The translations under genes were made by a program, and so were the position numbers. Under the pieces are notes generated by a model that saw nothing but the letters and a program-made list of their open reading frames with translations, was not told the origin of the DNA and searched no databases. A stretch of DNA of 64,000 bases from Promethearchaeota archaeon (GTDB lineage Archaea > Asgardarchaeota > Lokiarchaeia > Sigyniarchaeales > SOKP01). Below, one piece after another: positions 31,074-54,200 of this stretch. Location of the stretch: contig JBHLOC010000003.1 in NCBI GenBank assembly GCA_048940925.1, positions 96,001 through 160,000 on the forward strand, written 5' to 3'. Every line of letters begins with the position of its first letter. Within the stretch, counting starts at the first letter, position 1.

Positions 31074-31481
31074 AATTCTTATACTTAATTTTATACAAAT
31101 AAATTGATACAGACTATAGGTTTTCTAATAGTCAAAGAAATAATACAAATTTGTATATTTAGATTTAAGTTTTATCTTCTATATTACGGACCATAGGAAC
31201 AAAAAAAACTAGTTTAGCAAAAATATTTAAGAGGAAAGAGGCATATTTTCTTTAGGAGAGGGGTATCCGACAAAAATATAAATTATTTTCACTCCTAAAA
31301 TAATTTTTTAAATTCGTTAGATTTGATACTCCTCTTTTTTAATAATGGTGGTTTTAATGGGTTTAGGAGGAATTTCATCTTTATTGGGAATAAAATTATT
31401 CCAAAGAAAAACCGCTTTTCTTTAAAAAAATATATACTCAATGTGTAGTACATTTTTTTCATAGAAAATCCTATATCTATT

Positions 31482-32105
31482 ATGCTAACAAAAATTGACT
31501 TTAAAAAAACAATGAAAAATTTATATCAGCCAAATGCTAAAGAAGTGGTAGTTGTTGAAGTTCCTGATATGCAATTTTTAATGATTGATGGAATGGGCTC
31601 TCCTGGAGACTCTCAAGAGTATCAAGATGCACTTACAGCTTTATATCCTGTGGCTTTTAGAGCTAAATTTCTTAGTAAAGCAAAGGGTAAAGATTATGTT
31701 TTTCCTCCCTTAGAAGGTTTATGGTGGGCAGATAATATGAATGATTTTACAGAGGGATATAGGGATAAATGGAAATGGACTATGATGATAATGCAACCTG
31801 ATTGGATAACTCAAGAGATGATAAATGAAGCTAAAGCGATCACAAAGGAGAAAAAATCTGAGCTTTCACATTTACTTCCTAAACTCATATTAGAAAGATA
31901 CAGGGAAGGCAAAGCAGCACAAATCATGCACATTGGTCTTTATTCTGAAGAAGGTCCTACGATTCAAAAATTGCATGATTTCATCAAAAAGGAAGGGGGT
32001 AAATTTAATGGTCATACTAAGAAACACCATGAAATTTATCTTAGTGATCCAAGAAAAGCTAATCCTGCTATTATGAAAACTGTTATAAGACAACCTTTTA
32101 TCTAA
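31482..32105 (+). CDS. GyrI-like small-molecule-binding domain protein
   Basis: PPLEGLWW, WKWTMMIMQP, HHEIYLSDPR and KTVIRQP motifs. Confidence 0.85.
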   Translation: MLTKIDFKKTMKNLYQPNAKEVVVVEVPDMQFLMIDGMGSPGDSQEYQDALTALYPVAFRAKFLSKAKGKDYVFPPLEGLWWADNMNDFTEGYRDKWKWTMMIMQPDWITQEMINEAKAITKEKKSELSHLLPKLILERYREGKAAQIMHIGLYSEEGPTIQKLHDFIKKEGGKFNGHTKKHHEIYLSDPRKANPAIMKTVIRQPFI

Positions 32106-32440: not shown

Positions 32441-34846
32441 TCAAATGAAGCATAATAAATCTTTCTGAATAGATTTTTTGTCATAATCTAAAGTCAGCAA
32501 TTCCTCAAGTTCAGGGAATTCAAAAGGGAAAATGTTTTCAAAGGCTCTTTTTAGCAGTTCGACATATTTTCTTCTGTCATATTCATGCTTGTTATCATTA
32601 TACAAATCTGAAAGGACAATCTTTTTCTCAGGAAAATCAGGATTGGCATCGGCGTTAAGAATGATATATCTCACACTTTTTCCAGCCGAAGCTACTATTC
32701 CTGACCGCTCTAGTTGCTTTGCAGCAACAGCTTGATATGAGTTAACTTTGTATTGATTTGGTCTACGGGATATCCTTTGACGAATCGTAAGTTCCTCTCT
32801 TGATATCTTTCCGGAATAGATTCTTTCTACATATTCATAGAGCTTTTTCTTAGCATCAGGTACTCTTTTGAGGAACTCTTCAACAGTTTCTGCTCCTTGA
32901 AAACTGTCAATAAAGGCATACTGCGCATCTTTTACAATTTTTGGCATATCTCTACGCCTTACTTCGATCCCCCTGACTTTTGTTTCTCCATTACTCTTTA
33001 TCCCCCAGTAGTGACTGAGAGCAGGAACATCTGGCTCAGCCCTAGAAGGAAGAAAGACAATCACATTGTATCTTCCTTCCCAGTTCATGGGAATACTGGT
33101 GTGTTCAGTGATTTCATTCGCAATTTTTTTTGTTATTTCATCGAACTCTTTTGGAGCTCGGCTTTGTGTGTCCTTGAGCCATATCGAGTCTACAATTCCA
33201 TGAACTATTCGACACCCATGCTGTTCGGCTATTTCTGCAGCTCGCATTAGGAATTCACGTGCAAATGCACAGACCGTTTGATGTGCTTCTATCTTTCCAA
33301 AACGGGCGTTTTTAAATCCTAAATATCCAAAACTTACAACAAGTACCCATTTTAGTGCGGAGTCTGTGAACTTGTACCGAAGATCATCATGAGTTTTGTT
33401 GTATTCTTTATACTCAAGTCGTTTTCCTAAAGGCAGGCTAATCGATTTAGAAATAATGCCTTGTCTCTTGCTGCAAATATGGAAATTAAGTCCAGGCACC
33501 TTAATCCCAGTTCCATCATCGTTACAGCAGCTACAGTTGATGGTTTCAGAAGAGATATTGTATTTCGCCATCAGTGAAGGATACATTGAAGAAAAGTCAA
33601 GTTCTACCACTTGATCAAACACCCCAATTATTGGTTCAAAGATATGCCCTCCCCGATCGCCTCTAATTAAATCCATGCCATTTCTAAATCCCTCAGGACT
33701 TTTTTTGAAAGGAGGTACGAGATGATCAAGTTTGTAAGCATTGTAAAATTGAATGGATTGTAAAGCGCCTCCTATTGTAACTCTACATAACCTTTGCATA
33801 GGTATACGAGAAATACGAGCGACTTCAATCACCCCTGGGATATTACCGTCACTGAAATGTAGACTAGCGTAAGTTGCAGTATCTAGATGAAATCGCCCGG
33901 TGAAATACACCTGGGTTTTTGAGCGTCGGAAGATTATACCATATGACATATAATGGTCAGAACTTCCTGAAAGATCAAAAATGCAGTTTCTAAGTGGTGT
34001 TTTATTCCTTGAAAAAAAAAGATCCTTTGAAACACGATTCACAGATGCTCTGGCAGCCAGATATGGAAATAAAAACTCATCTCCATTATGAGTAAGAATA
34101 ATATCAGGATCAAGCCGTTCAATCACATTACTAATTTTTTTCAAAGTTTCTGCCTCATCTGCTTCGTCAATTAAAGTTTTTTGCTTCTTATACCCATCCG
34201 CTCGTGGCACGTTGTTTTCATCATTTTCCACGATGCTGACTTCGGCATATTCAAGAATGTCATTGAAATAGGGGCGTATTCCCTGCTGTCGTATTGTAAT
34301 GTCTAGCCAAACAGCCCTCAAGGGAGGTAAATTGTAGAATAGTTCTTCATTGTCATCTTTCAATTCCAACGAGACTAATTTCATCACTTCTTTATTTCTT
34401 TTCTTTGTTATCTCTGTTTTTACCTTGAAACTACAATAAGACATTGGAAATAAGTCATTTACGTAGAAATACATCTGGGAGAGAGGAAGATCAGTGTTAT
34501 ATAATGTAAAAAGTCCTATTTCATCGATTTCCTTAACTGTTTTTTTAAAAACTGAAGGTTTTACTACAGAAACACCAAATATTTTTGTTTTTTTGTGATC
34601 CTCGAGTTTTACATACTTTTCACAAATTCGCACATCTTTTATATTGTTATGTGACTTGAGAATTTGCTTCAACCTTTTAAAATCCTTACCAGTATGTTTT
34701 CTCGGGACAGCAAAGAATTCGGGACAAAATTCTTGAAAAACATTAATAACTTTTTGCTCCTTTATTGTTTTCACCCAAAGAATAACTCCTGTACTACAAG
34801 TAGAAACATCCAAAAGCCAGCCATCAAATTGCTCGTGATAATCCAA
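32441..34846 (-). CDS. polB2: Family B DNA polymerase of the PolB2 (Dpo2) group
   Basis: Motif A DFSSMYPS, motif B KWVLVVSFGYLG, motif C HGIVDS instead of YGDTDS (diagnostic for PolB2); degenerate exonuclease motifs. Confidence 0.92.
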   Translation of the reverse strand: MDYHEQFDGWLLDVSTCSTGVILWVKTIKEQKVINVFQEFCPEFFAVPRKHTGKDFKRLKQILKSHNNIKDVRICEKYVKLEDHKKTKIFGVSVVKPSVFKKTVKEIDEIGLFTLYNTDLPLSQMYFYVNDLFPMSYCSFKVKTEITKKRNKEVMKLVSLELKDDNEELFYNLPPLRAVWLDITIRQQGIRPYFNDILEYAEVSIVENDENNVPRADGYKKQKTLIDEADEAETLKKISNVIERLDPDIILTHNGDEFLFPYLAARASVNRVSKDLFFSRNKTPLRNCIFDLSGSSDHYMSYGIIFRRSKTQVYFTGRFHLDTATYASLHFSDGNIPGVIEVARISRIPMQRLCRVTIGGALQSIQFYNAYKLDHLVPPFKKSPEGFRNGMDLIRGDRGGHIFEPIIGVFDQVVELDFSSMYPSLMAKYNISSETINCSCCNDDGTGIKVPGLNFHICSKRQGIISKSISLPLGKRLEYKEYNKTHDDLRYKFTDSALKWVLVVSFGYLGFKNARFGKIEAHQTVCAFAREFLMRAAEIAEQHGCRIVHGIVDSIWLKDTQSRAPKEFDEITKKIANEITEHTSIPMNWEGRYNVIVFLPSRAEPDVPALSHYWGIKSNGETKVRGIEVRRRDMPKIVKDAQYAFIDSFQGAETVEEFLKRVPDAKKKLYEYVERIYSGKISREELTIRQRISRRPNQYKVNSYQAVAAKQLERSGIVASAGKSVRYIILNADANPDFPEKKIVLSDLYNDNKHEYDRRKYVELLKRAFENIFPFEFPELEELLTLDYDKKSIQKDLLCFI

Positions 34847-34847
34847 T

Positions 34848-35120
34848 TTAATCTTTTCCTTTAATAGTTTCTTCTAATTCGTCTACCTTTTTCTCCAATA
34901 TCATAATCTTTTTCTCTTGCTCAATCGCAAAAGAAATAAAAAGAATTTCGGAAAGCATAGGACGAGCACTCAGGCTCCCCGCATCAGCATGATTTCGCGC
35001 AAAATTCATCAATCTGTCAAAAACTTTTTGTTCTTCTGGACGAAGTGCTCTTTTAAAATCTTTCCAACTTTCAATTTCGTGTTCCAACGCAGGTCTAAAA
35101 GAAGGAACTGTCCTACCCAT
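34848..35120 (-). CDS. Small helical PolB2-associated protein (arCOG07300-like)
   Basis: MGRTVPSFR...W..FKRALR.E....FD.L signature; stop codon 1 nt from the polB2 start. ATG at 35120 preferred. Confidence 0.8.
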   Translation of the reverse strand: MGRTVPSFRPALEHEIESWKDFKRALRPEEQKVFDRLMNFARNHADAGSLSARPMLSEILFISFAIEQEKKIMILEKKVDELEETIKGKD

Positions 35121-35132
35121 AATAATAACCAC

Positions 35133-35180
35133 ATGAAGTAATTTTCTGAGAGATTTAAAAGAAAATACATTGACAATTTT
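35133..35180 (-). promoter_or_regulatory. Promoter of the small-protein/polB2 operon: upstream box, TATA and conserved downstream element
   Basis: Minus strand AAAATTGTCAATGTAT-N23 (contains TTTTAAAT)-TTACTTCAT; same layout at 43851-43898. Confidence 0.7.
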
Positions 35181-35299
35181 TCGATTTTTGTTTTGAAACT
35201 CAATTCTTTGAAAAATGCTTGTTATTGTCTATAAGCGGTATCAAATATTATAAAGCTATTTTACGAAATTTTTTAATTTCCTTTAATTTAATTAATATT

Positions 35300-37891
35300 A
35301 TGTTCATTTTTTTTGATAATTTAATTAGTTCCGAAGATAAGGAACAACAAGCATTTTTAATTCCAGAACCTCGCTACGTCAAATTGACAAATTTTAAAAA
35401 AATGAAGTTTAATGAACAGACAAAACTATTCACCAATTTGAAAGAAGAATATTCCTTTATAATTGAACAACTTCAAGAAAAGTTAGAATTTTTTGGATTG
35501 AATGCGAATTTAGAAACCCATAGAAGTCAGGAAATTAATGATTTTTCAGTTATTGAGTCATATTTAGAAGAAATAAAACACAAATTTCCAGACGATCTTT
35601 ATAATTTGATTAAAAGTGAAAAGAACTTTATTGAACAAGGATATGTTTTAGTTGCTGAAGATAATAGGGTTTTAATTGAAGGATCTACTCCTCAAGGTTT
35701 ATTCTATGGAATTCAAACCCTACTCCAATTATTGAACTCAAGTCAAAATAAGATATCATTAAGCGAATTAAAGATAATTGATTATCCTGTTTTAGAAATT
35801 AGGGGTGTTTCAGACGATATTTCTCGGGGACAAGCACCTACTATTGATAATTTAAAGAAATTTATAAAAGAACTAAGTCACTACAAGATAAATCAATATT
35901 ATCTGGTTTACATGCAAGATATGTTTAAATTTACAAATTATCCTAAAATTGGAAAAGATAGAGGGGCTTATTCAAAAGAAGATATAATAGAATTGCATAA
36001 ATATGCAAAAAATTTCTTTATTGAAATCATCCCTATTTTTCAGACTACAGGTCATTGGGATAACATTTTACACCATCCTGATTACTGGAACTATGGTGAG
36101 TTTCCTGGATCCAATAGTTTAAATATTTCTAATGAAAAAATTTATGAGCTTTTAGATGAAATGATTGGTGAATTAAGTGAGGCTTTTAAATCAGAGTACT
36201 TTCACATTGGTGCTGATGAGAGTTGGGATGTCGGAAAAGTAGCTTCAAAGAAGTATGTTGAAGATATTAGCATTGAAATTGCATACCTAAATCATTATAA
36301 GAGAGTCTATGATATTGTCAAGAAATATGGATATAAAAAAGTCATCATTTATCATGATATTCTTTATAAATATAAAGATATTCTTGAAGGATTACCAAAA
36401 GACATGATAATTATGTATTGGAACTATAAAACTCAACAAGTACATCCAATATTAAAAGAAATAAAAAATTATAATTTTCCTGTAATTGTTAGCCCCACAA
36501 TAATGGATTTTAATCGAATTTTTCCTTCAATCGATAAATATGAAAAGAATATCCTAAATTTAATTAAATATGGTCATGAAAACGGAGTTATTGGAGAGAT
36601 AACTTCAAGTTGGGGAGATTTTCATAACAAGGAAATCAGAGAAAACAGATTTTATGGTTTTATATTTTCTGCTATAGTAGGATGGAATCCTTTAAAAGAA
36701 ATTAACATAATATATTTTTGGAAATGTTTGTTTATTCACTTTTTCGGAATATTAGATAATAGACTAATTCAAATTTTCAGTTTTATCCGTTCACTCCAAG
36801 ATAAACGAAAATTGCATTTAAGAGACACAGCATATTATAATCATTTTTTTGCACATCCTTATGCTAAAAAAACTAAAAGATATAAAAAAAATATTAAAAT
36901 TTCGGGTTTTAAAAAATTAATAGAGGAATTGGATGAAATTATTAAGAAATGTGAAGAGTTAGAAAATATTGTTCTTAAAAATAAGATTAACATTATAAAC
37001 CTTGCCTTTATAACAAAACATATAAAATTTTATTGTAAAAAAAGAATAAACACAAAATCTTTAGTTGAGTATATTCCAGTTAAAGAAGTTTATACCAATT
37101 ATAAAATTGCTGAAATTCAAGAGTTGAAAAATGAATTAATTTTATTATTAGATGAATACGAACATCTTTGGATAAATTGTGCGAAAAAAGTAGGACTTGA
37201 AACAATAAAAAGGCAATATTTATGGTTAATAAAGTTTTACGATGTTAAAGTTGAACAACTAAAAAAGCACGTTAGATGGGAAAATCCTTATATCCCCAGC
37301 GAGTTGATATATTTAGATTGTGAAGGAATGCACAAGCTCCATACCACATTTTATAAGAAAATAATAAATATTGATGGAGAAATAGAACATGCCCATTTAC
37401 AAGTTATAGCTGGAACGTTTGCTAAAATTTTAATAAATAATTCAGAAGTAGGTCATATTATTACTCGACATTCCCTTAATTTTGTTGTATTAGAAAATAA
37501 TATTAAAATTTTTGATATAAAAGAGTATCTAAAACAAGGTGAGAATCTAATATTAATTGAAAATATAGACTATATTGGTGGTTTCTCTCCAATAAATATC
37601 TATGGTGAAATTAATTTAACTACAGAGGAACGACTAATAATTAAAACAGATAAAACTTGGACAGCTACAAGAAAATTAAATGGGGAATGGAAAGAAGTGA
37701 AAAGTTTTGGCAGACCTCCAAAGGCTACTGGTGGTTTATCTTATCCTGATTTTAAAAATTCTCTACCTTCAAAAGGAGATGAGGGAGTGGCTTTAATAAA
37801 TACAATTGCTAGTAGGAGAGAAAAAAAAAAAAAATTTTGGAGGTTAAAATTAGTATATAAACTTTTTAACAGATTCGATATTTTAGAATAA
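35300..37891 (+). CDS. Glycoside hydrolase family 20 (beta-N-acetylhexosaminidase-like)
   Basis: [15 protein letters not shown]...RG, DISRG and catalytic FHIGADE motifs. ORF is open from 35219; first ATG at 35300. Confidence 0.88.
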
Positions 37892-37904
37892 TTATTTAAC
37901 AATT

Positions 37905-38066
37905 TCATCTTATATTCTGTTTTATTTCTTTTCTCTTCCCTTTACATTTAGGGCATATAATTTCATCAAAATCTTCTAAATCACTTCTATAAACCCAAAT
38001 TTTTCCATTACCTTGACATACCTTACATATTTTCTTATCTCCTTTTGGAAAAACATAATAATTTAT
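37905..38066 (-). CDS. Small DnaJ-type zinc-finger protein (CxxCxGxG...CxxCxG), ATA start
   Basis: INYYVFPKGDKKICKVCQGNGKIWVYRSDLEDFDEIICPKCKGKRKEIKQNIR; SD GAGGTG about 8 nt upstream; in-frame stop two codons before the ATA. Confidence 0.7.
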   Translation of the reverse strand: MNYYVFPKGDKKICKVCQGNGKIWVYRSDLEDFDEIICPKCKGKRKEIKQNIR

Positions 38067-38342
38067 CTTTTAAACCACCTCTCCTAAACTTAAGAAATAT
38101 AATATTTTATATTATCATTAAGTATTACAATTCTAAAATTCAACAATTTAAGGGTATTCTACCTATTTAAATGTTTTCATAAAGTTTGAAATTTATAAAA
38201 AAATTATGAATAGTTAAGTTCTATTAAACAGTAAAAAAGTGAATAAATTATTCCAATTTTTTCATTATTACCAATAAAAAGGAAAAGAACGAGAAATTTT
38301 TGAATTTTTTTTTGCAAATTTATAATTTTTTGTAAATGTTAA

Positions 38343-39461
38343 TCACAATTTTTCTAAAGCTTCTAAAATTTCATCCTTTATTCTACCTTCACTTTCATCA
38401 AGAAATTCTTGTAAAGCTTTTTTAGCTTTTGAGCCACCAATGCGACCTAAAGCCCAGGCACACATACACTTAATTCTTTCATCATTATTATCATTGAAAG
38501 CTTGGATAAGGTCTGGAATATACTTTTGATCTAAGCTATTTCCCATTGCTCTTGCCACATTCATTTTCCATCTCCAAAGATCTGTTAATGGCATATAAAA
38601 CATGTGTTGCCAAATTTTAGTTCTATAAAATTTCTTATCCATATGGAGCAAACTCCGAAGGTCAAAATCTTTTTCCTTAGCAACTACTCTTTTGTTAATA
38701 GGCAAATCTTGAGCTAACCATGGTTTGTTTCGGGGACATACATTTTGACAATGGTCACACCCATAAACCCATAATCCCATTGGTTCACGAAGTTCTCTGG
38801 GGGTAAGATCTTCCCCTAAATATGTGAGATACGAAATACATTTGCGTGGATCTATTTTACGTGGACCTTTTAAGGCTCCGGTTGGGCAAGCACCAATACA
38901 TGCATTTTTACACCATTTTGGACATCCTATATCGTAAGTAGGTTCATCGGGGATAAATTCATAGTCTACTACAATAGGTATAGGCAAAATCCAAGAACCC
39001 CCACGAGCTACTTTATGTGAATAAAGTAAACAATTTTTTCCAAAGTTCCCTAACCCCGCACGGGCAGCTGCAACTCGTTCAGGTAGATTGGGGAGTATGA
39101 CCGAACTAATTCCATTATCTCGTAAATATTCACGAAAAGCTTTTATCTTTAAATATGATCCATCTCGAGTCATACGATAATCATCTAAATAACAACGACC
39201 AAAATATCCTTCTAATGAAGGAGGAAATGCTTCGTTAAAATAAGTCTCAATAAGCACGATTATTGATTTAGCATTAGGGTACATCTTCTTCGGGTCAGTA
39301 CCACTCATAAGGTCGATACCAGATGATAATAACCATGCATATTCTTCTCGTCGTGATTGTAATATCTCTAATTGTGATTCAAAAGGTTCAGCACTCGTAA
39401 ATCCTATATCCGCAAATCCAAGATCATATGCCTTATCAATGATTTGGTTTTTAGAAAGCAT
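38343..39461 (-). CDS. Epoxyqueuosine reductase (QueG)-like cobalamin/4Fe-4S protein
   Basis: ERVAAARAGLGNFGKN, CIGACPTGAL, CISYLT, YGCDHCQNVCP and a C-terminal HEAT-like AWALG. Confidence 0.82.
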   Translation of the reverse strand: MLSKNQIIDKAYDLGFADIGFTSAEPFESQLEILQSRREEYAWLLSSGIDLMSGTDPKKMYPNAKSIIVLIETYFNEAFPPSLEGYFGRCYLDDYRMTRDGSYLKIKAFREYLRDNGISSVILPNLPERVAAARAGLGNFGKNCLLYSHKVARGGSWILPIPIVVDYEFIPDEPTYDIGCPKWCKNACIGACPTGALKGPRKIDPRKCISYLTYLGEDLTPRELREPMGLWVYGCDHCQNVCPRNKPWLAQDLPINKRVVAKEKDFDLRSLLHMDKKFYRTKIWQHMFYMPLTDLWRWKMNVARAMGNSLDQKYIPDLIQAFNDNNDERIKCMCAWALGRIGGSKAKKALQEFLDESEGRIKDEILEALEKL

Positions 39462-39622
39462 AAATAAAATTATTTATAATTTTAATTTCTCTAAAAATAA
39501 GAATTAATATCAGAAATAATAATTGAACAAAAAATATTTTGATTTAAATTTTTAAGACTTTTATTTAAAAATTGGAAAGAATTAGAAAATAAGTTTAGAC
39601 GTTTTAAGAAAAGAAATCTCTT

Positions 39623-41680
39623 TTAAAATTGTGTTATTATAGCACAATGATCCGAGCTTATCGAGCAAAAAACCTCACTATTTTTTGGGTTTAAGTCAGG
39701 AGAACACATAATATAATCAATCCTTTTATGAGGATTATAATTGTCATCAAAGTCGCCTGTAAAACCAGGATCAGAATTTAGTAATCTATATGTGTCAGTA
39801 AAATTTAAGCTAGAGGTACTATTGATTAATAAATATTCTGTAGAATCGGGTTCAAGATTAAAATCACCCATCCATATTATTCTCTTGAAAGGTATTTCTT
39901 TCTCAATTTCATTAACAATGAAAGGGACTTGTACTAATCTGTCTTCTGAATTTGTTGATAAATGAGTGACAAATATAACCCAGATTGATGAATTTACTTG
40001 AATTTCAGCTCTTATTAAAGATCTTGGCCTTTCAGAAGGAATAGCTAGAGGTAAGCTAATGATTTTTGCTTCTAATATGGGATATTTGCTCAAAATAACA
40101 TCTCCATAATGTTTATAAAAAGTAAAGCCAAAAAAATAATACATATTAAGTTCATGGGCGATATATGATGGCATATCTATAAAAGAAGTTTTAAGTGCTC
40201 CTAAATCGACTTCATTTAGTCCTAATATGTCAGGATCATTTTCTTTGATATCTTGGATAAGACGATTAATCTGAAATGAGTCGTCAGCTCCGATAGCAGT
40301 ATGTATATTCCACATCATAAATTTAGGATTTGGGTTTTGAACAGGTGTAGATTTACGTTCTTGAACCAGAACTCCTATAAAAAAACCATAGATTATTAAA
40401 ACACATATAAGCATTATTCCCATGGTTTTATTCAAATTTTGAGAGTGCTCTTTCGGAGAAAGTGTTATTTTCTTAGTTTTTAATTCATAAATTGAAATTA
40501 CTAATACACCGACTACTATTTGAATTATTAGATTTGTCAATAATGACAAATATTCATACCATAGAATCTCTACATGAAGGATTATAAAAAACATATTTGT
40601 AAGAAAGAAGATTATTATTCCAATCAACAATTTTTTAGGGGAATCAAAGGTATAAAAATTAAATAAATACGATATATAAAATAGAATAGAAAAAACACTA
40701 ATTACTGTCATCAATGAAATATAAATTGAAGAAATTAAGGTAAGATCATTTTCAATAATGTAAAGCGCGAACACTGTTAAGATACAAGTAATTCCAATGA
40801 AAAAAATAACAATTTTCTTGACTAACTTTTGATTTAACGTAAATAAATACTTAAATATTATTATATAGCTCATAATTGCTGTAAGAAGTATCAATAAAAT
40901 ATAATATGTGAATCCATAAGTCGGCCATTGATTTAGGGAATCTGGGATTAAGTTGTTTATGCTCAGATTAATAATGTCATATGCTGAGAGTGCCATTGGA
41001 TTAAAGATCCACATAATTGAAAAAATAAATAGAATTCCCAAGATTATAAAGTGAAATAACGAGATGTTTGTTTTATCTGATTTAATAGGTTTTTTATCAA
41101 TATCAGAGATTAATTTCTCAAATCTATCAGGATAAAAAAGATAATTATTGATTACAAGTAATATTACCATAAAAATTAATATGGGAATTAATTTGCTGAC
41201 ATCTGAAGTTAGATTTGATGATATATTAATAGTTAAAAAGATAAATTGAATCCCCAATCCGATAATCACACTTCCTAAAAAGTGTGAATAATTTATGTAA
41301 GATTCACTTACTTCCATTAATAAAACAAAACCCATAAAGAAAATCAATATAGTAAATAGCATTATTAAATTAAGTACAAGAATTACACTGGGAGTAAGAA
41401 CAAACTGAGTACTTATTCGGACTCCAACAATAATGTAAGTTAAAATATACGGTTTATACTTCTTTTTAATTCTTGCTGACATAAAAAAGAAGTATTCAAA
41501 TATTATAAGCAGAATTGCAATTATTAATGTAGGTATTACAGTAATGATCTCTGAGAAGTTCATGAAAATGTAGGCATTAATATTTACTAGAACGTTATAA
41601 AAGCTTTCTATGAAAAGGTAAAAAATAATTCCAATAAGACAAATTGAACTGATCTTACCATATTTCTGCATTTTTCTCAA
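39623..41680 (-). CDS. Multi-TM protein with C-terminal endonuclease/exonuclease/phosphatase domain
   Basis: About 13 TM segments followed by WNIH, DILGLNE, ILSKYP, THL, GDFN, RIDYI and SDH motifs. Confidence 0.85.
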   Translation of the reverse strand: MRKMQKYGKISSICLIGIIFYLFIESFYNVLVNINAYIFMNFSEIITVIPTLIIAILLIIFEYFFFMSARIKKKYKPYILTYIIVGVRISTQFVLTPSVILVLNLIMLFTILIFFMGFVLLMEVSESYINYSHFLGSVIIGLGIQFIFLTINISSNLTSDVSKLIPILIFMVILLVINNYLFYPDRFEKLISDIDKKPIKSDKTNISLFHFIILGILFIFSIMWIFNPMALSAYDIINLSINNLIPDSLNQWPTYGFTYYILLILLTAIMSYIIIFKYLFTLNQKLVKKIVIFFIGITCILTVFALYIIENDLTLISSIYISLMTVISVFSILFYISYLFNFYTFDSPKKLLIGIIIFFLTNMFFIILHVEILWYEYLSLLTNLIIQIVVGVLVISIYELKTKKITLSPKEHSQNLNKTMGIMLICVLIIYGFFIGVLVQERKSTPVQNPNPKFMMWNIHTAIGADDSFQINRLIQDIKENDPDILGLNEVDLGALKTSFIDMPSYIAHELNMYYFFGFTFYKHYGDVILSKYPILEAKIISLPLAIPSERPRSLIRAEIQVNSSIWVIFVTHLSTNSEDRLVQVPFIVNEIEKEIPFKRIIWMGDFNLEPDSTEYLLINSTSSLNFTDTYRLLNSDPGFTGDFDDNYNPHKRIDYIMCSPDLNPKNSEVFCSISSDHCAIITQF

Positions 41681-41847
41681 ATGAATTATCGAATTGATTA
41701 ATATTAATTCAATCTGAAGATTTATAATGGTTTAGCTAATTTTATTCAAAAAAAATTAGAAGCGTTGATATATTTTAAAACTACTAAAATCTGTATTCTT
41801 TTTGAAAAATAAAATTTTTTATGTTCATATTTTATTAGTTATTTATT

Positions 41848-42582
41848 ATGGTTGAATTAAATATACTGTTAAATTTCATCGGAATGATCTTTGAAATCTT
41901 TATAATGATTTTCGCTGCAGTTCTTCTAATACTTATATCAAAAAAATATTTAATTAAACGTCATAAACTCACACGATTGCTTCTATTAATTTTTATTAAT
42001 TATTTTATAGCAATTGTTTTTTCTTGGATCTCAAAAGTTTTTGTTGTTTCACAGTTAACTGTAGAACAAGATGGCTCAATAGGTGCTTGGATATATAATG
42101 TGATATCAGATTTTAGATTAAGTGAATTCTTTGTTGTTATTGCTATTTTTCTATCTTATATATTGAAGGTAAATGTTTTTGAAAAAGGATATAATACTAT
42201 ACAGCGATATGTGGTGATAATTTATGGTATTTTCTCAGGTTTTTATGTATTAATCATCTATGAAAGCGGTAATACTTTATTGGATGTTTTTGCGTTCTTA
42301 ATTGTATTTTTATATATGGTTATGGTTTATGCTCCCTTTTTACGAAGAGCAATAGAATCTTATCGAGCAGTAGATGAAAAGACATATAAACAAGCATTTT
42401 TATCATTAGCAATAATGTCAGTTAGTTTTATGTTGATATTTCTCAATTTTGCGACTGATCGAGCATTAATCTTCTTAGGTAGCCCGGGATTTACAGTGTT
42501 TTATTTCTTAGCCTGGAGTTGCGCAATAATTGGAATTTTTGGAGCATATTATGGGTATATTAGACCAAAAGCAAGTGAATAA
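41848..42582 (+). CDS. Seven-transmembrane protein with no soluble output domain
   Basis: Seven hydrophobic segments in 244 aa. Confidence 0.75.
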   Translation: MVELNILLNFIGMIFEIFIMIFAAVLLILISKKYLIKRHKLTRLLLLIFINYFIAIVFSWISKVFVVSQLTVEQDGSIGAWIYNVISDFRLSEFFVVIAIFLSYILKVNVFEKGYNTIQRYVVIIYGIFSGFYVLIIYESGNTLLDVFAFLIVFLYMVMVYAPFLRRAIESYRAVDEKTYKQAFLSLAIMSVSFMLIFLNFATDRALIFLGSPGFTVFYFLAWSCAIIGIFGAYYGYIRPKASE

Positions 42583-42672
42583 TAAAATTAAATTTTTTAA
42601 AAACTAAACATTAAATAATTTTTATTTGTTTTTTCTTAATTATTTGTAAAGTCAATTGGAATATAATAAGCA

Positions 42673-43095
42673 GTGATACCTGTGGAAAAAATAATACAAG
42701 ATATTTGGATACTAAGTGATGCTGGCACTGTATTATATCACCGCGCTTCTGATAAGAAAGTAGATGATCAATTAATAGGGGCACTAATATCTGCATTGAA
42801 TCTGTTAGCAGAAGAATTAGAGCGCGGAGGTTTGTCTAGCTTCGAGTTACAAGATAAAAGATATATTATAATGAAACAGCATGGATTATCATTTATTGTA
42901 AATACTTCAAAAAAGGTTAAGGAAAAAAAGGTTAAAGAAGAGATGAGAAGTATCGTTAACAGATTCTTTGATATATATCCAAAAGAGATTTTTGAAAATT
43001 GGGATAATGATATAAGTATCTTTACTGACTTTGAAAAGCGTTTTGAAGATAATTTACAGGAAACTATAAAAAAATTTGAAAACGCCTTTTGGTGA
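42673..43095 (+). CDS. Longin-like domain protein
   Basis: IWILSDAGTVLY hairpin, DQLIGALISAL helix, three strands, then RFFDIY...F..FE; typical Asgard longin pattern. Confidence 0.75.
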   Translation: MIPVEKIIQDIWILSDAGTVLYHRASDKKVDDQLIGALISALNLLAEELERGGLSSFELQDKRYIIMKQHGLSFIVNTSKKVKEKKVKEEMRSIVNRFFDIYPKEIFENWDNDISIFTDFEKRFEDNLQETIKKFENAFW

Positions 43096-43100
43096 TAAAT

Positions 43101-43850
43101 TTAAAACCATACATCGAGGGTCATATTTCTTAAAGGAACTTTCTTCTTTGGTTCACATGGTTTCCATTTTAATAATCGCTTTTCGGGCAAATAAGGATGC
43201 TGAACAAGCGTATATTCGACACATCGCTCGTCATCTTTTATCATTACTAACACACTTCCAAAATGGGAAAGGATTTTTCCACCTTTAGGTCTGAAATGCG
43301 AATATTCGTTTAAAGGTGCCGTTATAATAATTAGTGGGTTTGTTTTCCAAAGTATTTTTTTTATTCCATCTATTGCTCTTAGCAGGTCTTCAAAGGTCTG
43401 TTTTTCATAATTTTCAAATAAGGTAGTAATTCCAGAGATTAAGACTACTTTAATATCCTCTAGTTTGGAAAGTTTGTTTTCTAAAAGCTCAACCATTTGA
43501 TCCCAAGTAAAGGCTCTAGCAATTAGAATGTTCTCTAATACTTTTGTGGGTGATAAATTTTGTGAAACTGCAAATTTACTTATATTATAAGGATTAAATC
43601 GATTATTTGCATCAATGAAGGCAACTCTGACACCATCCCCGAACCCTCCATTACTAAAGGACTTTTGAACAATAACAGAAGTTGTAATTAAAATATTAGT
43701 GGATACCTTCTTATCTCCATAGAGTAAATACACTAAATCCCGGTGATAGCCCCCAGAAAGCAATTCATCTAGAGTCTTATCTCCACTTGAAATGAGTCGG
43801 AAATGATTATTCTTCTTGTAGACCTTAAATCCTGAATTAAACGACATCAT
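43101..43850 (-). CDS. Inactivated RadA/RecA-family ATPase of the PolB2-associated type
   Basis: SSGDKTLDELLSGG, FIDANNRF and LENILIARAFT match RadA, but Walker A is GDKKVST and Walker B is VVLISG. Start moved from 43913 to ATG 43850 on promoter evidence. Confidence 0.85.
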   Translation of the reverse strand: MMSFNSGFKVYKKNNHFRLISSGDKTLDELLSGGYHRDLVYLLYGDKKVSTNILITTSVIVQKSFSNGGFGDGVRVAFIDANNRFNPYNISKFAVSQNLSPTKVLENILIARAFTWDQMVELLENKLSKLEDIKVVLISGITTLFENYEKQTFEDLLRAIDGIKKILWKTNPLIIITAPLNEYSHFRPKGGKILSHFGSVLVMIKDDERCVEYTLVQHPYLPEKRLLKWKPCEPKKKVPLRNMTLDVWF

Positions 43851-43898
43851 ATGAAGTAACAATTCTTCAAAATAAAACAGAGATACACCGACAATTTT
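43851..43898 (-). promoter_or_regulatory. Promoter of the RadA-like gene, same architecture as the polB2 operon promoter
   Basis: Minus strand AAAATTGTCGGTGTAT-N23 (contains TTTTATTT)-TTACTTCAT, directly followed by ATG. Confidence 0.7.
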
Positions 43899-44049
43899 CT
43901 GAAATACGTGCATTTTGTCTATAGTTTAGAAATTCTATTTCCTTCTTTAATAAAAAATGTTCTTTTAAAAGTAATATGTTTCTATAGGGATAGAGAGGGG
44001 AGAGTAAAAGTAAAAATGAATTATGTGTAATTCTAAATCAATCAGAAGT

Positions 44050-44067
44050 GTCCGACAAAATCCGAAA
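44050..44067 (-). promoter_or_regulatory. Second TTGTCGG box upstream of the RadA-like gene
   Basis: Plus strand GTCCGACAAAATCCGAAA; CCGACAA core 164 bp from the first box, same orientation. Confidence 0.45.
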
Positions 44068-48284: not shown

Positions 48285-51200
48285 ATGAATGTTATGGATG
48301 AGCAAAAAGAAGGAGAATTTAAGGAAGATATTGATGAGGATGGATTTGATCCAACTAAAGAAGCTTTCTTTTCAGATTTGATGGAAATGGAAGAAGATAT
48401 TGCTTCTGAGGCCTATGAACTAGTGGAACATGCTATGGGGCTAATACAATCACAATATTATGATGATGCTATAGAAGTTTTACGACAAGCAATTGGTATG
48501 TATACTCAGATAAATAGAGAAGAGGAAATTAAAGCTATTAATAACAAAATTTCTGAGATTTATCTTCTTAAAGAAAAAATATTTAGAGAAAGCGAAATTA
48601 CAACTGAAGTTAAAAGTGAAAAATTGGAGGAGGAGATAGGGGAAGGCGAAGTAAGAATTGTTGAAACTGAAGAAATTGTTAAGGAAAAAGAAGAAGAGGA
48701 TTTCATTGAAACAATAAATAGTCTATTAAAAAGGGCTAAAGAATTAATAGATGAGGATAAATTCGAAGAAGCTCTTGATAATTATGACGAAATAATTGGA
48801 ATTTATGAAGATTTAGGAAAATCTGATGAAATAGAAAAAGTTTATGTATTAATTGAAGAAGTTTATAATAAAAAGGCTGATTATTTACGTAGTATTAAAA
48901 AGGAACCTTCTAAAATTGAAATTGAGTTTGAAAGTGAGGAAGAAATTCTACCAAGAGAAGAAGAACTTAAGGAAGAAAAACTACAGCAATATTTTGATTC
49001 TAAAAAACGGGAAGAAGAAATCTCATCAAGGGCATATGAATTATTGGGAATAGCAGCTGAGCATGCAAAAAGTTATCAATATGATCAAGCGTTGCAATTA
49101 TATATAGAAGGAGCTAATCTCTTCAAGCAGTTAAATTGGACCTATGAGGTTAAAAAAGTCGAAGATACAATAGATCTACTACATCAGCAAAAAACTAACC
49201 ATTTAAAGGAACTTGAAAGACAGGAAATAAAGAAAAAAGAAGAAATTGAGACTCAAAGTCAACAGGTTGAAAAAATCAAAGTAGATGTAAAAGATAAAGA
49301 GGAGGAAGAGAGAATTGCAAAATTAGAGAAATTAAAAGGAATAGAATTTCAAAAGATGGAAAATGAGTATTTTAAAGCACAAGTTGATAATATGGCTACG
49401 GAAGCTGCTCGTATGGGGCGTGAATACGAATTAGCTATGCAGAAGGCTATAAAAAAAGGAAAGATGATTGAAGAATGTATTTATCCAAAAGTTATTGAGA
49501 TTTATAAAAGAATTAAAGAGTTATTAGTTGATAAAGGATGGAGAAATGAAGCAAAAATTTATGATGAGACTATTGATATTTATATCCAAAAATTTGAACA
49601 AGACAAAAAAATAAGACAAATTGAAGCCGAAAAAGTAAAAAAACAAAAAGAAGCTGAAGAAATGTTAAGAGTTCCTAGAGAAGAACATATTCCTACATTG
49701 AGTGAAGAAAAAGTAAGAGTATTGGAAGAACAACGTAGAAAAGAAAGCGAGATTAGAAGTATCAAGGAAAATCTGGATGAGATGACTAATCGTGCTGAAA
49801 AGATAGCGAGAGAATATGAAGTTGCTTTAAGGAAAGGAAGATTTGAATTAAAATGCCCTTTTCCAGAAATTATAAACATTTATAAAAAGGCAAGACAGAT
49901 CGCACTGGAAAGAGGGTGGGAGACAGATGCGGCGATATTTTTAAGTCAAATTCAATCATACAACGAAAAGTTACAAAAAGACAAGAAATTAAGGCAAATA
50001 GAAATAGATAAAAGAAAAAAAGAAGTAGAACTTGAAGAGATATCAAAAGTAAAAAAAGAAGAAAAAATAAAATTAGACAAAACGAAATTAGAAAGAATTG
50101 AAGAAGAGAAAAGATTAAAAGAAGAAGAAGGAGAATTTAATGAATTAATCAATAAAATGATTAATAAAGCTAAAAAATTGGCTAGAGAATATGATCTAGC
50201 TATGAAAAAAGCAATAAGGGAAGGATCGTTAGCAGAAAATCCCCCTTTTGAAGAGATTATTAAGATTTATGAAAGAGTAAAACAGATGGTCTTATCAAAA
50301 GGAAGAAATGAGGAAGCAGCTATTTATGCTAATCAAATTCTTTTATTTTCTGAAAAGTTAAAAAAAGATTTAAAATTAAGAGAAGTTGAGGCCCAAAAAG
50401 CTGAGAGACAAAGAAAAATTGAGGAAATGCATAAAGTCGATCGAAAATCAGAAATTGATGAAGTTAAATTGAAAGCTATTGAAAAGAAAAAAGAAGAAGA
50501 GGAATTTGAAAAAGATATAGCAGATACAGTTAATAAAGCTGAAAAACATGTGCGAGATCATGAAACAGCAATGAGAAAAGCTCTAAGAGAGGGAAGGATA
50601 TTAGAAAAAACACCATACCAAGAAGTGATTGAAATTTATAAAGAATTACGTGATAAAGTATTAGCAAGAGGTTGGGAAGATCAAGCTAGAATATATTCTA
50701 ATCAAATCAAAATATATCAAGATAAGTTAGAGAAACATGAAAAATTACTCGAAGTAGAAACTCAGAAAGCAGAGAGAGAAAAATTATTAGAGGAAATGCA
50801 TAAGGTCGAACGAAAATCAGAAATTGATGAAGTTAAATTGAAAGCTATTGAAAAGAATAAAGAAGAAGAGGAATTTGAAAAACATATAGCAGATATGGTT
50901 AATAAAGCTGAGAAACTTGTGCGAAATCATGAAATTGCAATGAGGAAAGCTCTAAGAGAAGGATTTATAATAGAAGACACACCATATCCAAATGTAATTG
51001 CACTCTATAAACAAATAAATGATGAAATATTAGCAAGAGGATGGGAGGATCAAGCTAGGATTTATTCCAATCAAATCAAACTATATCAAGATAAGTTAAA
51101 GAAACATGAAAATTTACTTGAAGTGGAAGCTCAGAAAGCAGAGAAAGAAAAACAATTAGAGGAAATGCGAAGAGTAGGGCGAAAATCAGAAGTTGATGAA

Positions 51201-54200
51201 AGAAGAATAAAAGCTATAGAAAGAAAAAAAGAAGAAGAGGCATTTGAAAAATCTATCACTGGTTTAATTAATCAAGCTGAAAAATTGGAGAGAGATTTTG
51301 AAAGGGCTATGAAAAAAACTATAAAAAAAGGGGAGATGCTTGAACAAACCCCCTATGTCGAAATTATAGATATTTATAAAGAAATTAAAGAAAAGGTATT
51401 AGAGAAAGGGTGGGGAGATCAAGCTAGTATCTATTCAAATCAAATAAAATTATACCAAGACAAATTAGAGAGACATAAAAAATTATTAGAGGTAGAAGCT
51501 CAGAAAGCAGAAAAAGAAAAACAATTAGAAGAAATGCATAAAGTTGATCGAAAATCAGAAATAGATAAAGGAAGAATAAAAGCAATAGAAATAAAAAAAG
51601 AGGAAGAAGAGGAATTTGAAAAATTTATAACTGACCTAATTAACAAAGCTGAAAAATTAGAAAGAGATTTTGAAAGGACTATGAAAAAAACTATAAAAAA
51701 AGGGGAGATGCTTGAACAAACCCCTTATATTGAAATTATAGATATTTATAAAGAAATTAAAGAAAAGGTATTAGAGAAAGGGTGGGGAGATCAAGCTAGT
51801 ATCTATTCAAATCAAATAAAATTATACAAAGACAAATTAGAGAAACACAAAAAATTATTAGAGGTAGAAGCTCAGAAAGCAGAGAAAGAAAATCAATTAA
51901 AGGAAATACATAAAGTTGATCGCAAATCAGAAGTTGATGAAAGAAGAATAAAAGCAATAGAAAGTAAAAAAGAAGAAGAGGAATTTGAAAAATTTATAAC
52001 TGACCTAATTAACAAAGCTGAAAAACTGGAAAGAGATTTTGAAAGGGCTATGAACAAAGCCATGAAAAAAGGGGAGATATTTGAGCAAACCCCCTATGCT
52101 GAAATTATAGATATTTATAAAGAAATTAAAGAAAATATATTAGCAAAAGGCTGGAGAGAACAATCAGAGATTTATACCAACCAAATCAAACTATATCAAG
52201 ATAAGTTAGAGAAACATGAAAAATTGCTTGAAGTGGAAGCTCAGAAAGCAGAGAGAGAAAAACAATTAGAGGAAATGCAAAGAGTAGAGCGAAAATCAGA
52301 AATAGATCAAGGAAGACTAAAAACTATGGAAAGAAAAAAAGAGGAAGAAGACGAATTTGAGAGAACTATTTCTGATTTAATTAATCAAGCGGAAAAATTG
52401 GAAAGAGATTTTGAAAGGGCTATGAAAAAAGCTATAAAAAAAGGGGAGATGCTTGAACAAACCCCTTATGTTGAAATTATGGATATTTATGAAGAAATTA
52501 AAGAAAAAGTATTAAAGAAAGGGTGGGGGGATCAAGCTAGTATCTATTCTAATCAAATAAAATTCTATCAGGATAAATTAGAAAAACACGAAAAATTGCT
52601 CGAAGTGGAAGCTCAGAAAGCAGAGAAGGAAAAACAATTAGAGGAAATGCATAAAATAGGGAAAAAGGAAGTTAAACCATATAAGCCAGAAAAAATAAAA
52701 GAAATTGAAGAGGGAAATAAGGAAGAAGATATAGTATTAAACCAAGCAATGAATCTTATAGATGAGGCTGAGAAGTTAGTTAAAAATTATGAATTAAGTA
52801 TCAAATCAGATGTTTTATTATACGAAAGTCCTTACAATAAAGCAATTGAAAATTATGAAGAAGCTCAAAAACTACTTAAACAAATTGACTGGAATGAAGA
52901 AGCTATTCGTTTAATCAAAACAATTAAATTTTATAAAGAAAAGAAAGATAAAGATGAAAAATTAAGAGAATTTGAGAAAAAGAAATTAGAGGAACCAGAA
53001 CCAACATTATTAACTGCAAAAGTTGATACTGAAAAAGAATTACTTGCAAGAGAAGAGAAGATTTTAGAATTTGAAAAGAAAAAGAAAGAAGAGGCAAAAG
53101 TAGCAGAAGAAATTTTCAATAAAATCCATAAAGCAGAAAGAATGGCACAAGAATATGAAGTGAAAATTAAGGATGGTGTTTTTGAGCAAGAAGCCCCATA
53201 TGAAGATATTCTTAAAATATATCGGGATGCTAGAAAAGATTTTGAAGAAATTGGTTGGATGGAAGAATCAATGAAACTCATCAATACAATACAATTTTAT
53301 AAAGAAAAGTTGGAAAAAGATAAAAAACTGCGACTCATGGAGATTCAAAAGGAAAAGAAACGAGAAAAAGAAATTTTAATGCAACAAAAATTACTTCAAG
53401 AGGCGAAGGAGGAACAAGAGCGATTTTTAAAACAAAAAGAAGAAGCTCTAATTTTACAAAAGGAAAAAGCAAGCGAATTTGAATCAGCTAAGAATAGTGC
53501 ATTTAATTTAATGGATCTAGCTAAAAATAAATTACAAGAAAACAATTTTGATGAAGCTATTGAACTTTACAAAGCAAGCGGAGAAATATTTTCTGATATA
53601 GGCTGGCAAGAAGGAATTAAAATGGTTAATGATTCAATTATAATGATTAAAAAGAAAAAGGAATCACTTGAGTTTGAAAAGAAATCATTAGAAGAGAGAA
53701 GAATTGAAAAAGTAAAAATTGAAGAAAAATTAGAAGAAAAATTAGCTAAAGCTGAAGAGTTAAGGATATTACAGCAGGAAGAAAAGAGAAAAGAATTATT
53801 GCGAATTCAGAGAGAGAAAGAATGGGAAAGTGAAATTTCAGAAGACGCTTACGAACTTCTAGAACAAGGTACTATTCTGCTAGAAGCTAACAAGTTTGAT
53901 GAAGCTTATGAAAAGTATATTGAAGCAAGAAAATTATTTAATAAAATTTCATGGAAACGAGAAGTCTCTAGGATAAACAATGATTTATTATTTAAACTCA
54001 AGAGAGAAAGGAAAAAATTTGAAATTCTCGAAGATATCAAAGTAAAAAAAGCTGAGGAAGAAATAGAAATGGAGAAATTAAAACAAGAAGCTGATAGGAA
54101 ACGTAGGGAACTTGAGAAAAAGAAAAAAGAAGATAAGCGTAAATTTGTAAAGGAAGAAATTGGGAAAGAGATTAAGAGTAGGTTAAGAAAAGCTGAAAAA

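Follow-up and report, generated by a model that had tools for sequence, protein, structure and literature searches.

The PolB2 translesion mutasome comprises the polymerase PolB2 (Dpo2-type), the small protein PPB2 (arCOG07300) and an inactivated RadA paralogue (iRadA); its genes normally form a single operon and are interspersed only rarely (PMC11791011; for the mutasome set see also PMC4104785). A physical complex has been modelled for this family, an N-terminal MGRT is a described feature of PPB2, and clamp motifs in both PolB2 and iRadA at once are rare (PMC11791011). In Sulfolobales, the DNA damage-responsive element (DDRE), a hexamer ANTTTC within AATAGTTTCRGWDTACTCWS, is bound by Orc1-2 (PMC6061795, PMC5817253, PMC9738581, PMC12490963), and induction of dpo2 in Sulfolobus is Orc1-2-dependent. 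The mutasome and this Sulfolobales circuit are thus already known; in the literature searched we found no report of an Asgard-wide DDRE/Orc1-2 circuit, of additional targets, or of a second promoter specific to split cassettes. We analysed a 64,000-nucleotide stretch (the window; positions 96,001 to 160,000 of contig JBHLOC010000003.1, assembly GCA_048940925.1) from a Promethearchaeota archaeon of the class Lokiarchaeia, which encodes a split mutasome cassette (Table 1). Our analysis indicates that an Asgard version of the Orc1-2/DDRE damage circuit, narrowed in this family, probably controls iRadA through a DDRE-like box lying upstream of that gene.

All three mutasome genes are present in the iRadA-PPB2-PolB2 order and, on sequence criteria, they are the known PolB2 translesion mutasome. 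PPB2 has the N-terminal MGRT (residues M1-G2-R3-T4 are invariant in 14 homologues), the Walker A motif of iRadA is destroyed and reads YGDKKVSTN, and the polymerase has variant motifs, with HGIVDS at motif C and degenerate exonuclease motifs; NF004416 and NF004418 were the top NCBIfam models for PolB2, both below cut-off. C-terminal tails resembling the PCNA-interacting peptide (PIP) are also present, QKDLLCFI on PolB2 (32441-32467) and NMTLDVWF on iRadA (43101-43127). The gene coordinates, orientation and separation of the halves by about 8 kb given in the initial annotation agree with the open reading frames (ORFs) and the Pfam DNA_pol_B and Rad51 matches. The arrangement differs from that of the described operons, as the 8-kb insert with genes on both strands does not fit a single transcription unit for iRadA, PPB2 and polB2, and most genera of this family have a split cassette with a second promoter. 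Within the same genus the two halves were split in 20/20 loci, co-oriented and with 0.5-8 kb of changing genes between them. The operon is intact in genus g18 of the same family (40-nt gap); in the family's other sampled genera the halves are 0.6-7.4 kb apart or iRadA has been relocated, and in other families the cassette is contiguous or broken at different points.

The DDRE-like box upstream of iRadA (the distal box) belongs to a pattern that was first visible 5' of iRadA in distant families, ACTTTCGG-N4-CTCTC, and that fits the Sulfolobus DDRE consensus. Comparison of the distal box with AATAGTTTCRGWDTACTCWS gave a column-permutation p of 0.004; in the window copy the hexamer reads ACTTTT. 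Exact matching across 161 genomes of the class gave 29 matches, compared with 6 for a reversed control, and the genes with intergenic matches in front of them included iRadA, a solo polB2 and a divergent Orc1/Cdc6 gene (cdc6L); when one mismatch was allowed, a search of five genomes gave no improvement over its control. With a matrix built solely from the cdc6L promoters of other genomes, only two sites in this genome exceeded 22 bits, one at cdc6L (contig C63) and the other the distal box of iRadA, at 27.2 bits. The same matrix scored at least 13 bits upstream of iRadA in 29/29 cases and of a TFB paralogue in 29/29, compared with 0.64% of all genes, and detected the box 5' of this paralogue in two families; at this threshold the promoter of the third cdc6 gene (C41) had the box in 0/30. 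Across the family the distal box stays near -165 of iRadA, a near-constant distance which suggests that the box either keeps a set geometry relative to the proximal promoter or serves a second promoter, and the TATA-like word TTTTAAAA that follows the box is a possible distal promoter. The hexamer of a further word, TTTTGTCGG, showed no clear enrichment in intergenic DNA (z 1.8).

An exact search of 356 genomes of the phylum found matches in 159, including 63/72 of family f30. Seventy matched loci outside Lokiarchaeia were inspected blind to their neighbours, and 24 of the matches were within genes and 46 intergenic. Among the latter, 24 precede iRadA, PPB2, polB2, radA, uvrA, uvrB, a TFB paralogue, cdc6L or an Orc1-2-type cdc6, and one more precedes an nreA-like gene, which brings those at repair or regulon genes to 25/46; these cover nine families, with several from related genomes. 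Of 24 sites, 19, 16 and 19 had A, A and T, respectively, at the three unsearched positions 5' of the pattern, which are the bases found in Sulfolobus. The Asgard consensus reads aatAcTTTCGG-N4-CTCTC, and its best copies (L353, L352) agree with the Sulfolobus DDRE at up to 19-20 of 20 positions. In other Asgard lineages a DDRE-like box is present at polB2 or PPB2 genes that stand alone (L105/L400, L397, L340, L332, L373), so the polymerase half appears often to be regulated directly. From these recurrent sites, it is probable that Asgard archaea have a DNA-damage regulon.

It could be argued that the distal box is a terminator, an RNA element of anti-Shine-Dalgarno type or a chance occurrence in AT-rich DNA, since it is pyrimidine-rich and in this family often includes TCACCTC, the complement of the ribosome-binding word. 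We regard all three as highly improbable. The box persists whether the upstream gene is co-oriented or divergent, it lies 5' of TATA at cdc6L, and its TCAC part varies freely in other families; chance is opposed by the excess over reversed-pattern controls, both in the class and in three other families (47 vs 9).

Three canonical Cdc6 proteins are encoded in this genome. The one at C13:3979-5178 passes NF001623, has Pyrobaculum Cdc6 (1FNN) as its closest structure and contains a recognition helix PKSYSQLWNY and a basic wing KIKGRK. The recognition helix of Sulfolobus Orc1-2 is R353-R354-H355-T356-Q357-V358-Y359 (PMC12490963); orthologues of the C13 protein in two other Asgard families (L309, L351) read HTQIW and HTQVW at the H355-T356-Q357 site, and these Orc1-2-type genes have the exact box within their own promoters. 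Given its matching winged-helix signature, the C13 protein is predicted to be of Orc1-2 type and is the likely reader of the distal box. The likeness to the Sulfolobales circuit covers the box sequence and its position upstream of a weak B recognition element (BRE)/TATA, the target classes (PolB2 operon, TFB paralogue and orc1/cdc6 gene), and the presence of an Orc1-2-type protein whose recognition helix bears the same signature.

A different reader, either the ATPase-dead Cdc6 paralogue encoded by cdc6L or the C41 Cdc6, or a role of the box in replication or cell-cycle control instead of damage, would seem unlikely. cdc6L (C63:12996-14156; L164:3997-5157) is single-copy in 132/161 genomes of the class, its product has the full Orc1/Cdc6 fold, and it lies directly upstream of smc-scpA-scpB. 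In the class the box is strongest at cdc6L, mostly about 7-12 nt before TTTAAATA, which would fit autoregulation. However, the protein is without the Walker B acids and the conserved winged-helix arginines, the targets elsewhere include uvrA, uvrB, nreA and radA, and the Orc1-2-type genes of two families bear the box themselves. In genus g18 (L178-L181), the cdc6L box is inverted, doubled and downstream of the TATA word, an arrangement that would suit repression, not activation.

LexA-dependent SOS control of imuA-imuB-dnaE2 and of bacterial polB2 operons offers a further comparison, being likewise a damage-type regulon with an error-prone polymerase complex and an inactive recombinase paralogue. 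Unlike a LexA site, the distal box is no palindrome and precedes the core promoter, as would suit an activator, and there was no sign here of a self-cleaving repressor, although LexA itself was not searched for. The factor is thus likely to be an Orc1/Cdc6-family activator and not a LexA-like repressor.

The initial annotation had drawn attention to a different element, a motif pair with a 23-nt spacer upstream of both halves, and this was confirmed on the minus strand (35133-35180 and 43851-43898). The two 48-mers are identical at 31/48 positions, and both AAAATTGTCnnTGTAT and TTGTC-N30-TTACTTCAT occur only twice in the 4.82-Mb genome; the TATA in the spacer is good at PPB2 (TTTAAAT) and weak at iRadA (TTTTATTT). 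In-frame stops occur within 63 nt 5' of the iRadA ATG in 12/29 orthologues, so we place the iRadA start at 43850 with the upstream 63 nt noncoding, and the same stops rule out that the motif is a coding part of a longer iRadA. The proposal that both elements of the pair are under selection was supported for the first but not for the second. A conserved A-rich box has the core TYAGAAAAY-N15-TATA; at genus level both promoters read TcAGAAAAtT-N5-TGTAT-N5-TTTTA, TGTAT being common at this level only, and at family level they have in common just the A-rich box and its distance of about 15 nt from a TATA-like word, with iRadA keeping TYAGAAAATTGTCGG. Exact TTACTTCAT was in register in only 9/29 iRadA and 1/26 PPB2 promoters of relatives and is therefore not a conserved site, and TTGTC was kept in 29/29 iRadA promoters versus only 2/26 of PPB2.

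By a regular expression composed after the sequences had been seen, this proximal box was present 5' of PPB2 in 43/47 split cassettes and 0/12 contiguous ones, with a background of 3.4% of all genes. A matrix trained on one genus is a fairer test, and it scored at least 15 bits at 13/18 PPB2 promoters of other genera and -3 at two contiguous ones. When this genome was scanned with the proximal matrix, iRadA (29.2 bits) ranked first and PPB2 (22.3 bits) second; these were the only sites above 20 bits, the next site near a gene start scoring 14.6 bits. A generic Loki promoter was ruled out by the lack of a positional peak before 5326 TATA-like words, and TATAGACAA, found upstream of both halves, was rejected as a shared element on its variable spacing and its absence from relatives. 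These results support the proximal box as a selected, non-generic promoter element common to both halves; that of PPB2-polB2 is most simply a copy of iRadA's, retained by selection. The split cassette is in this respect a clean example of a promoter arising exactly at an operon break.

Because it marks just two promoters in the genome, the proximal box is not an SOS-like regulon by itself. None of the other repair genes inspected in this genome (uvrA, uvrB, radA, herA-like, tfb and cdc6 genes) had the proximal motif, and the composite ranked 83 at radA (C42) and beyond 1000 at the herA-like genes. The SOS-like regulon of the initial annotation survives as a probable damage regulon of Asgard archaea, defined by the distal box and not by the shared proximal motif. 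Its statement that no such operator is described for Asgards agrees with the literature searched, but the comparable DDRE of Sulfolobales is described (PMC6061795, PMC5817253). The model in which a single factor binds the two-part motif (AAAATTGTC..TGTAT + TTACTTCAT) and governs a wider SOS-like regulon draws on the uniqueness of the motif to both halves and on conservation of its 5' part. We consider it improbable, as TTACTTCAT is not conserved and the composite is at no other repair promoter of the genome; as a wide regulon it is largely refuted. The WYL activators PafBC and DriD use a RecA-independent promoter motif, tTGTCRgtg, which the iRadA proximal word TTGTCGGTG resembles. This word is not kept at PPB2, the transcription machinery here is archaeal, and a WYL/PafBC-type reader was ruled out by the absence of any PF13280 match in this genome (100% complete by markers), which also counts against the single-factor model.

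At iRadA, the proximal site is similar to the orc1-2 promoter of S. islandicus and lies at -45 to -40 from the ATG; the Sulfolobus DDRE is at -44 to -39 from the start site. Permutation against the Sulfolobus DDRE consensus gave p = 0.017 for the iRadA site and p = 0.19 for that of PPB2. Given the latter value and a median of about -5 bits on the Asgard DDRE matrix, we treat the proximal box as a separate element; the region contains only a weak dyad (about 7/10). It may be bound weakly by Orc1-2, or it may be a promoter that the TFB paralogue uses once induced; alternatively, it may be no more than a matched core promoter. In the last case, a core promoter type with low constitutive or growth-phase output would have been copied at the split to match subunit amounts, and only iRadA would be under DDRE control and limit assembly. 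This agrees with the restriction of the box to two promoters, its appearance at PPB2 only in split cassettes, the lack of a DDRE at PPB2 and the low scores of the proximal sites on the DDRE matrix. The DDRE-like boxes at solo polB2 and PPB2 genes in other Asgard lineages and the resemblance of the iRadA site to the orc1-2 promoter, at a comparable position, argue against it; we consider it possible but on balance unlikely.

We propose instead that in most genera of this family the operon split after iRadA and that the PPB2-polB2 half acquired its own promoter with iRadA's proximal box, such that the halves can be expressed together. Damage control would act via the distal box; by analogy with Sulfolobus, the Orc1-2-type Cdc6 would bind it and activate the weak-BRE promoters of iRadA, the TFB paralogue (C13:7661-8734) and cdc6L. 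The proximal box could then relay the signal to PPB2-polB2, its reader being either Orc1-2, with weak binding, or the TFB paralogue once induced.

Several observations weigh against this scheme. The uvrA, uvrB, radA, dinB and orc1-2-type genes of this genome are without the distal box, orc1-2 promoters of the family have it in 0/30, and the TFB site of this genome, which ranks 22 of 3590, is degenerate. In the family, PPB2-polB2 is without the distal box (1/29 with at least 13 bits; best 11.3 bits in 20 more), and neither box is clear at solo PPB2 (G050, G055, G044) or solo polB2 (G044). To these are added the low scores of the proximal sites on the Asgard DDRE matrix and the non-significant likeness at PPB2, the post hoc origin of the regular expression, and the fact that relatives are non-independent samples; Orc1-2 binding, activation, damage induction and the path to PPB2-polB2 are predictions. 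In G060, where polB2 is apart from iRadA-PPB2, a moderate box is present at both halves (18.4 and 14.5 bits), an arrangement not seen in G059 or G044. The damage regulon thus appears narrowed in this family by comparison with other Asgards, which add uvrA, uvrB, nreA and radA to the targets known from Sulfolobales. Further differences from the Sulfolobales DDRE are that the box is 165 nt from iRadA, its GG is mostly AA, the orc1-2-type gene is without it, the targets include an ATPase-dead Cdc6 paralogue, the TFB paralogue (2.5 kb from the Orc1-2-type gene) is full length, and the polymerase half is on a separate proximal box.

If the proposed circuit is correct, Orc1-2/DDRE control would be common to TACK and Asgard archaea and no Sulfolobales speciality. 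With the site, its candidate reader and the targets all named, the question is open to testing with recombinant protein and cultured Lokiarchaeia. Cdc6-2 is reported to have been lost in the last eukaryotic common ancestor (PMC12680538), from which it would follow that eukaryotes replaced the circuit. More speculatively, and with rather low confidence, a two-tier response might descend from the TACK-Asgard ancestor, in which Orc1-2 at the DDRE would induce iRadA together with an alternative TFB and an SMC-linked, ATPase-dead Orc1/Cdc6 partner, and the TFB would read the proximal box and switch on both halves. The dead paralogue would then serve as feedback or as a heteromeric partner, a prokaryotic parallel of non-catalytic ORC subunits.

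Table 1. Features of the split mutasome locus (positions in the window)
Feature	Position	Strand	Remarks
PolB2 (Dpo2-type) polymerase, 801 aa	32441..34846	-	ORF; Pfam DNA_pol_B and exo1
PPB2 (arCOG07300), 90 aa	34848..35120	-	ORF; MGRT at N-terminus; 1 nt ahead of polB2
Proximal promoter of PPB2-polB2	35133..35187	-	A-rich box ending AAAATT, TGTAT, TATA at 35153-35160, pyrimidine-rich tract before presumed start site
Variable insert between halves	35300..43095	both	about 8 kb; content and length differ among relatives
Insert genes	35300..43095		GH20 hydrolase, 4Fe-4S/HEAT protein, EEP nuclease-like membrane protein, 244-aa membrane protein, longin-domain protein
iRadA, 249 aa	43101..43850	-	ORF; Pfam Rad51 match; start is ATG at 43850
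Proximal promoter of iRadA	43851..43905	-	TTTCAGAAAATTGTCGG box, weak TATA at 43870-43877, probably leaderless
Second TATA-like word TTTTAAAA	43963..43970	-	23 nt past distal box; largely conserved in genus
Distal DDRE-like box TTTTACTTTTACTCTCCCCTCT	43994..44015	-	165 nt upstream of iRadA; same box at dead cdc6 paralogue and TFB paralogue
TTTTGTCGG word	44052..44060	-	at similar distance in roughly half of iRadA upstream regions

The iRadA-PPB2 gap (window 35121-43100; loci L061-L080, L379-L396) acts like an insertion hotspot, its genes differing almost genome by genome, and several gap genes shift between this gap and the far side of polB2. A gene of about 70 aa with no Pfam match is located 3' of polB2 in two genomes (L083, L091, L215) and was not found in this genome; in G044 it stands solo and is preceded by a strong distal box (31.5 bits), then by a TTGTCGG word and TATA. 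A GyrI-like gene (31482-32105) adjoins polB2 in most loci of the genus. A TTTTTGTCGGATACCCCTCT site, 13.8 bits on the distal-box matrix, is found at 31257-31278 on the minus strand of the window and in L068, about 200 nt upstream of the GyrI-like gene and pointing away from it. Beside the gyrI-like gene of other loci (L067, L070, L071, L075-L077, L080), a TrmB-like regulator and a small cysteine-rich gene are divergently oriented on either side of a TGTGACA / TGTCACA dyad; this regulator, TrmB-type by eye and with its own TGTGACA dyad, was rejected as a player and is unrelated.

The C13 cluster (L103:33-8734) comprises the Orc1-2-type cdc6, a helix-turn-helix gene, a type IV prepilin peptidase, membrane genes and the divergent TFB, and the promoter of this cdc6 has its own conserved AAAAAATTAATACTCTGTAT element. 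The third cdc6 (C41; L134-L163) is usually 3' of a tyrosine-recombinase-like gene and a conserved AAGAAAATT box precedes its TTTTAT by 16 nt, which recalls the layout of the proximal box; in this genome the C41 box is degenerate. In family f18 (L343, L349, L367) a TFS-like gene is preceded by a tiny zinc-ribbon gene that has the exact distal-type box in front of it. A search with the S. islandicus orc1-2 promoter sequence had as its sole match one Thermoproteota metagenome-assembled genome, and no Sulfolobales orc1-2 locus was retrieved in the Thermoproteota searches; in this match (L195:2340-3278) the S. islandicus orc1-2 DDRE sequence is directly 5' of a TFB paralogue and a secretion-type ATPase. 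Elsewhere in the window, a 2128-aa protein with tandem charged helical repeats is encoded at 48285-54671 on the plus strand, 3' of proteasome alpha and a Rab-like GTPase.

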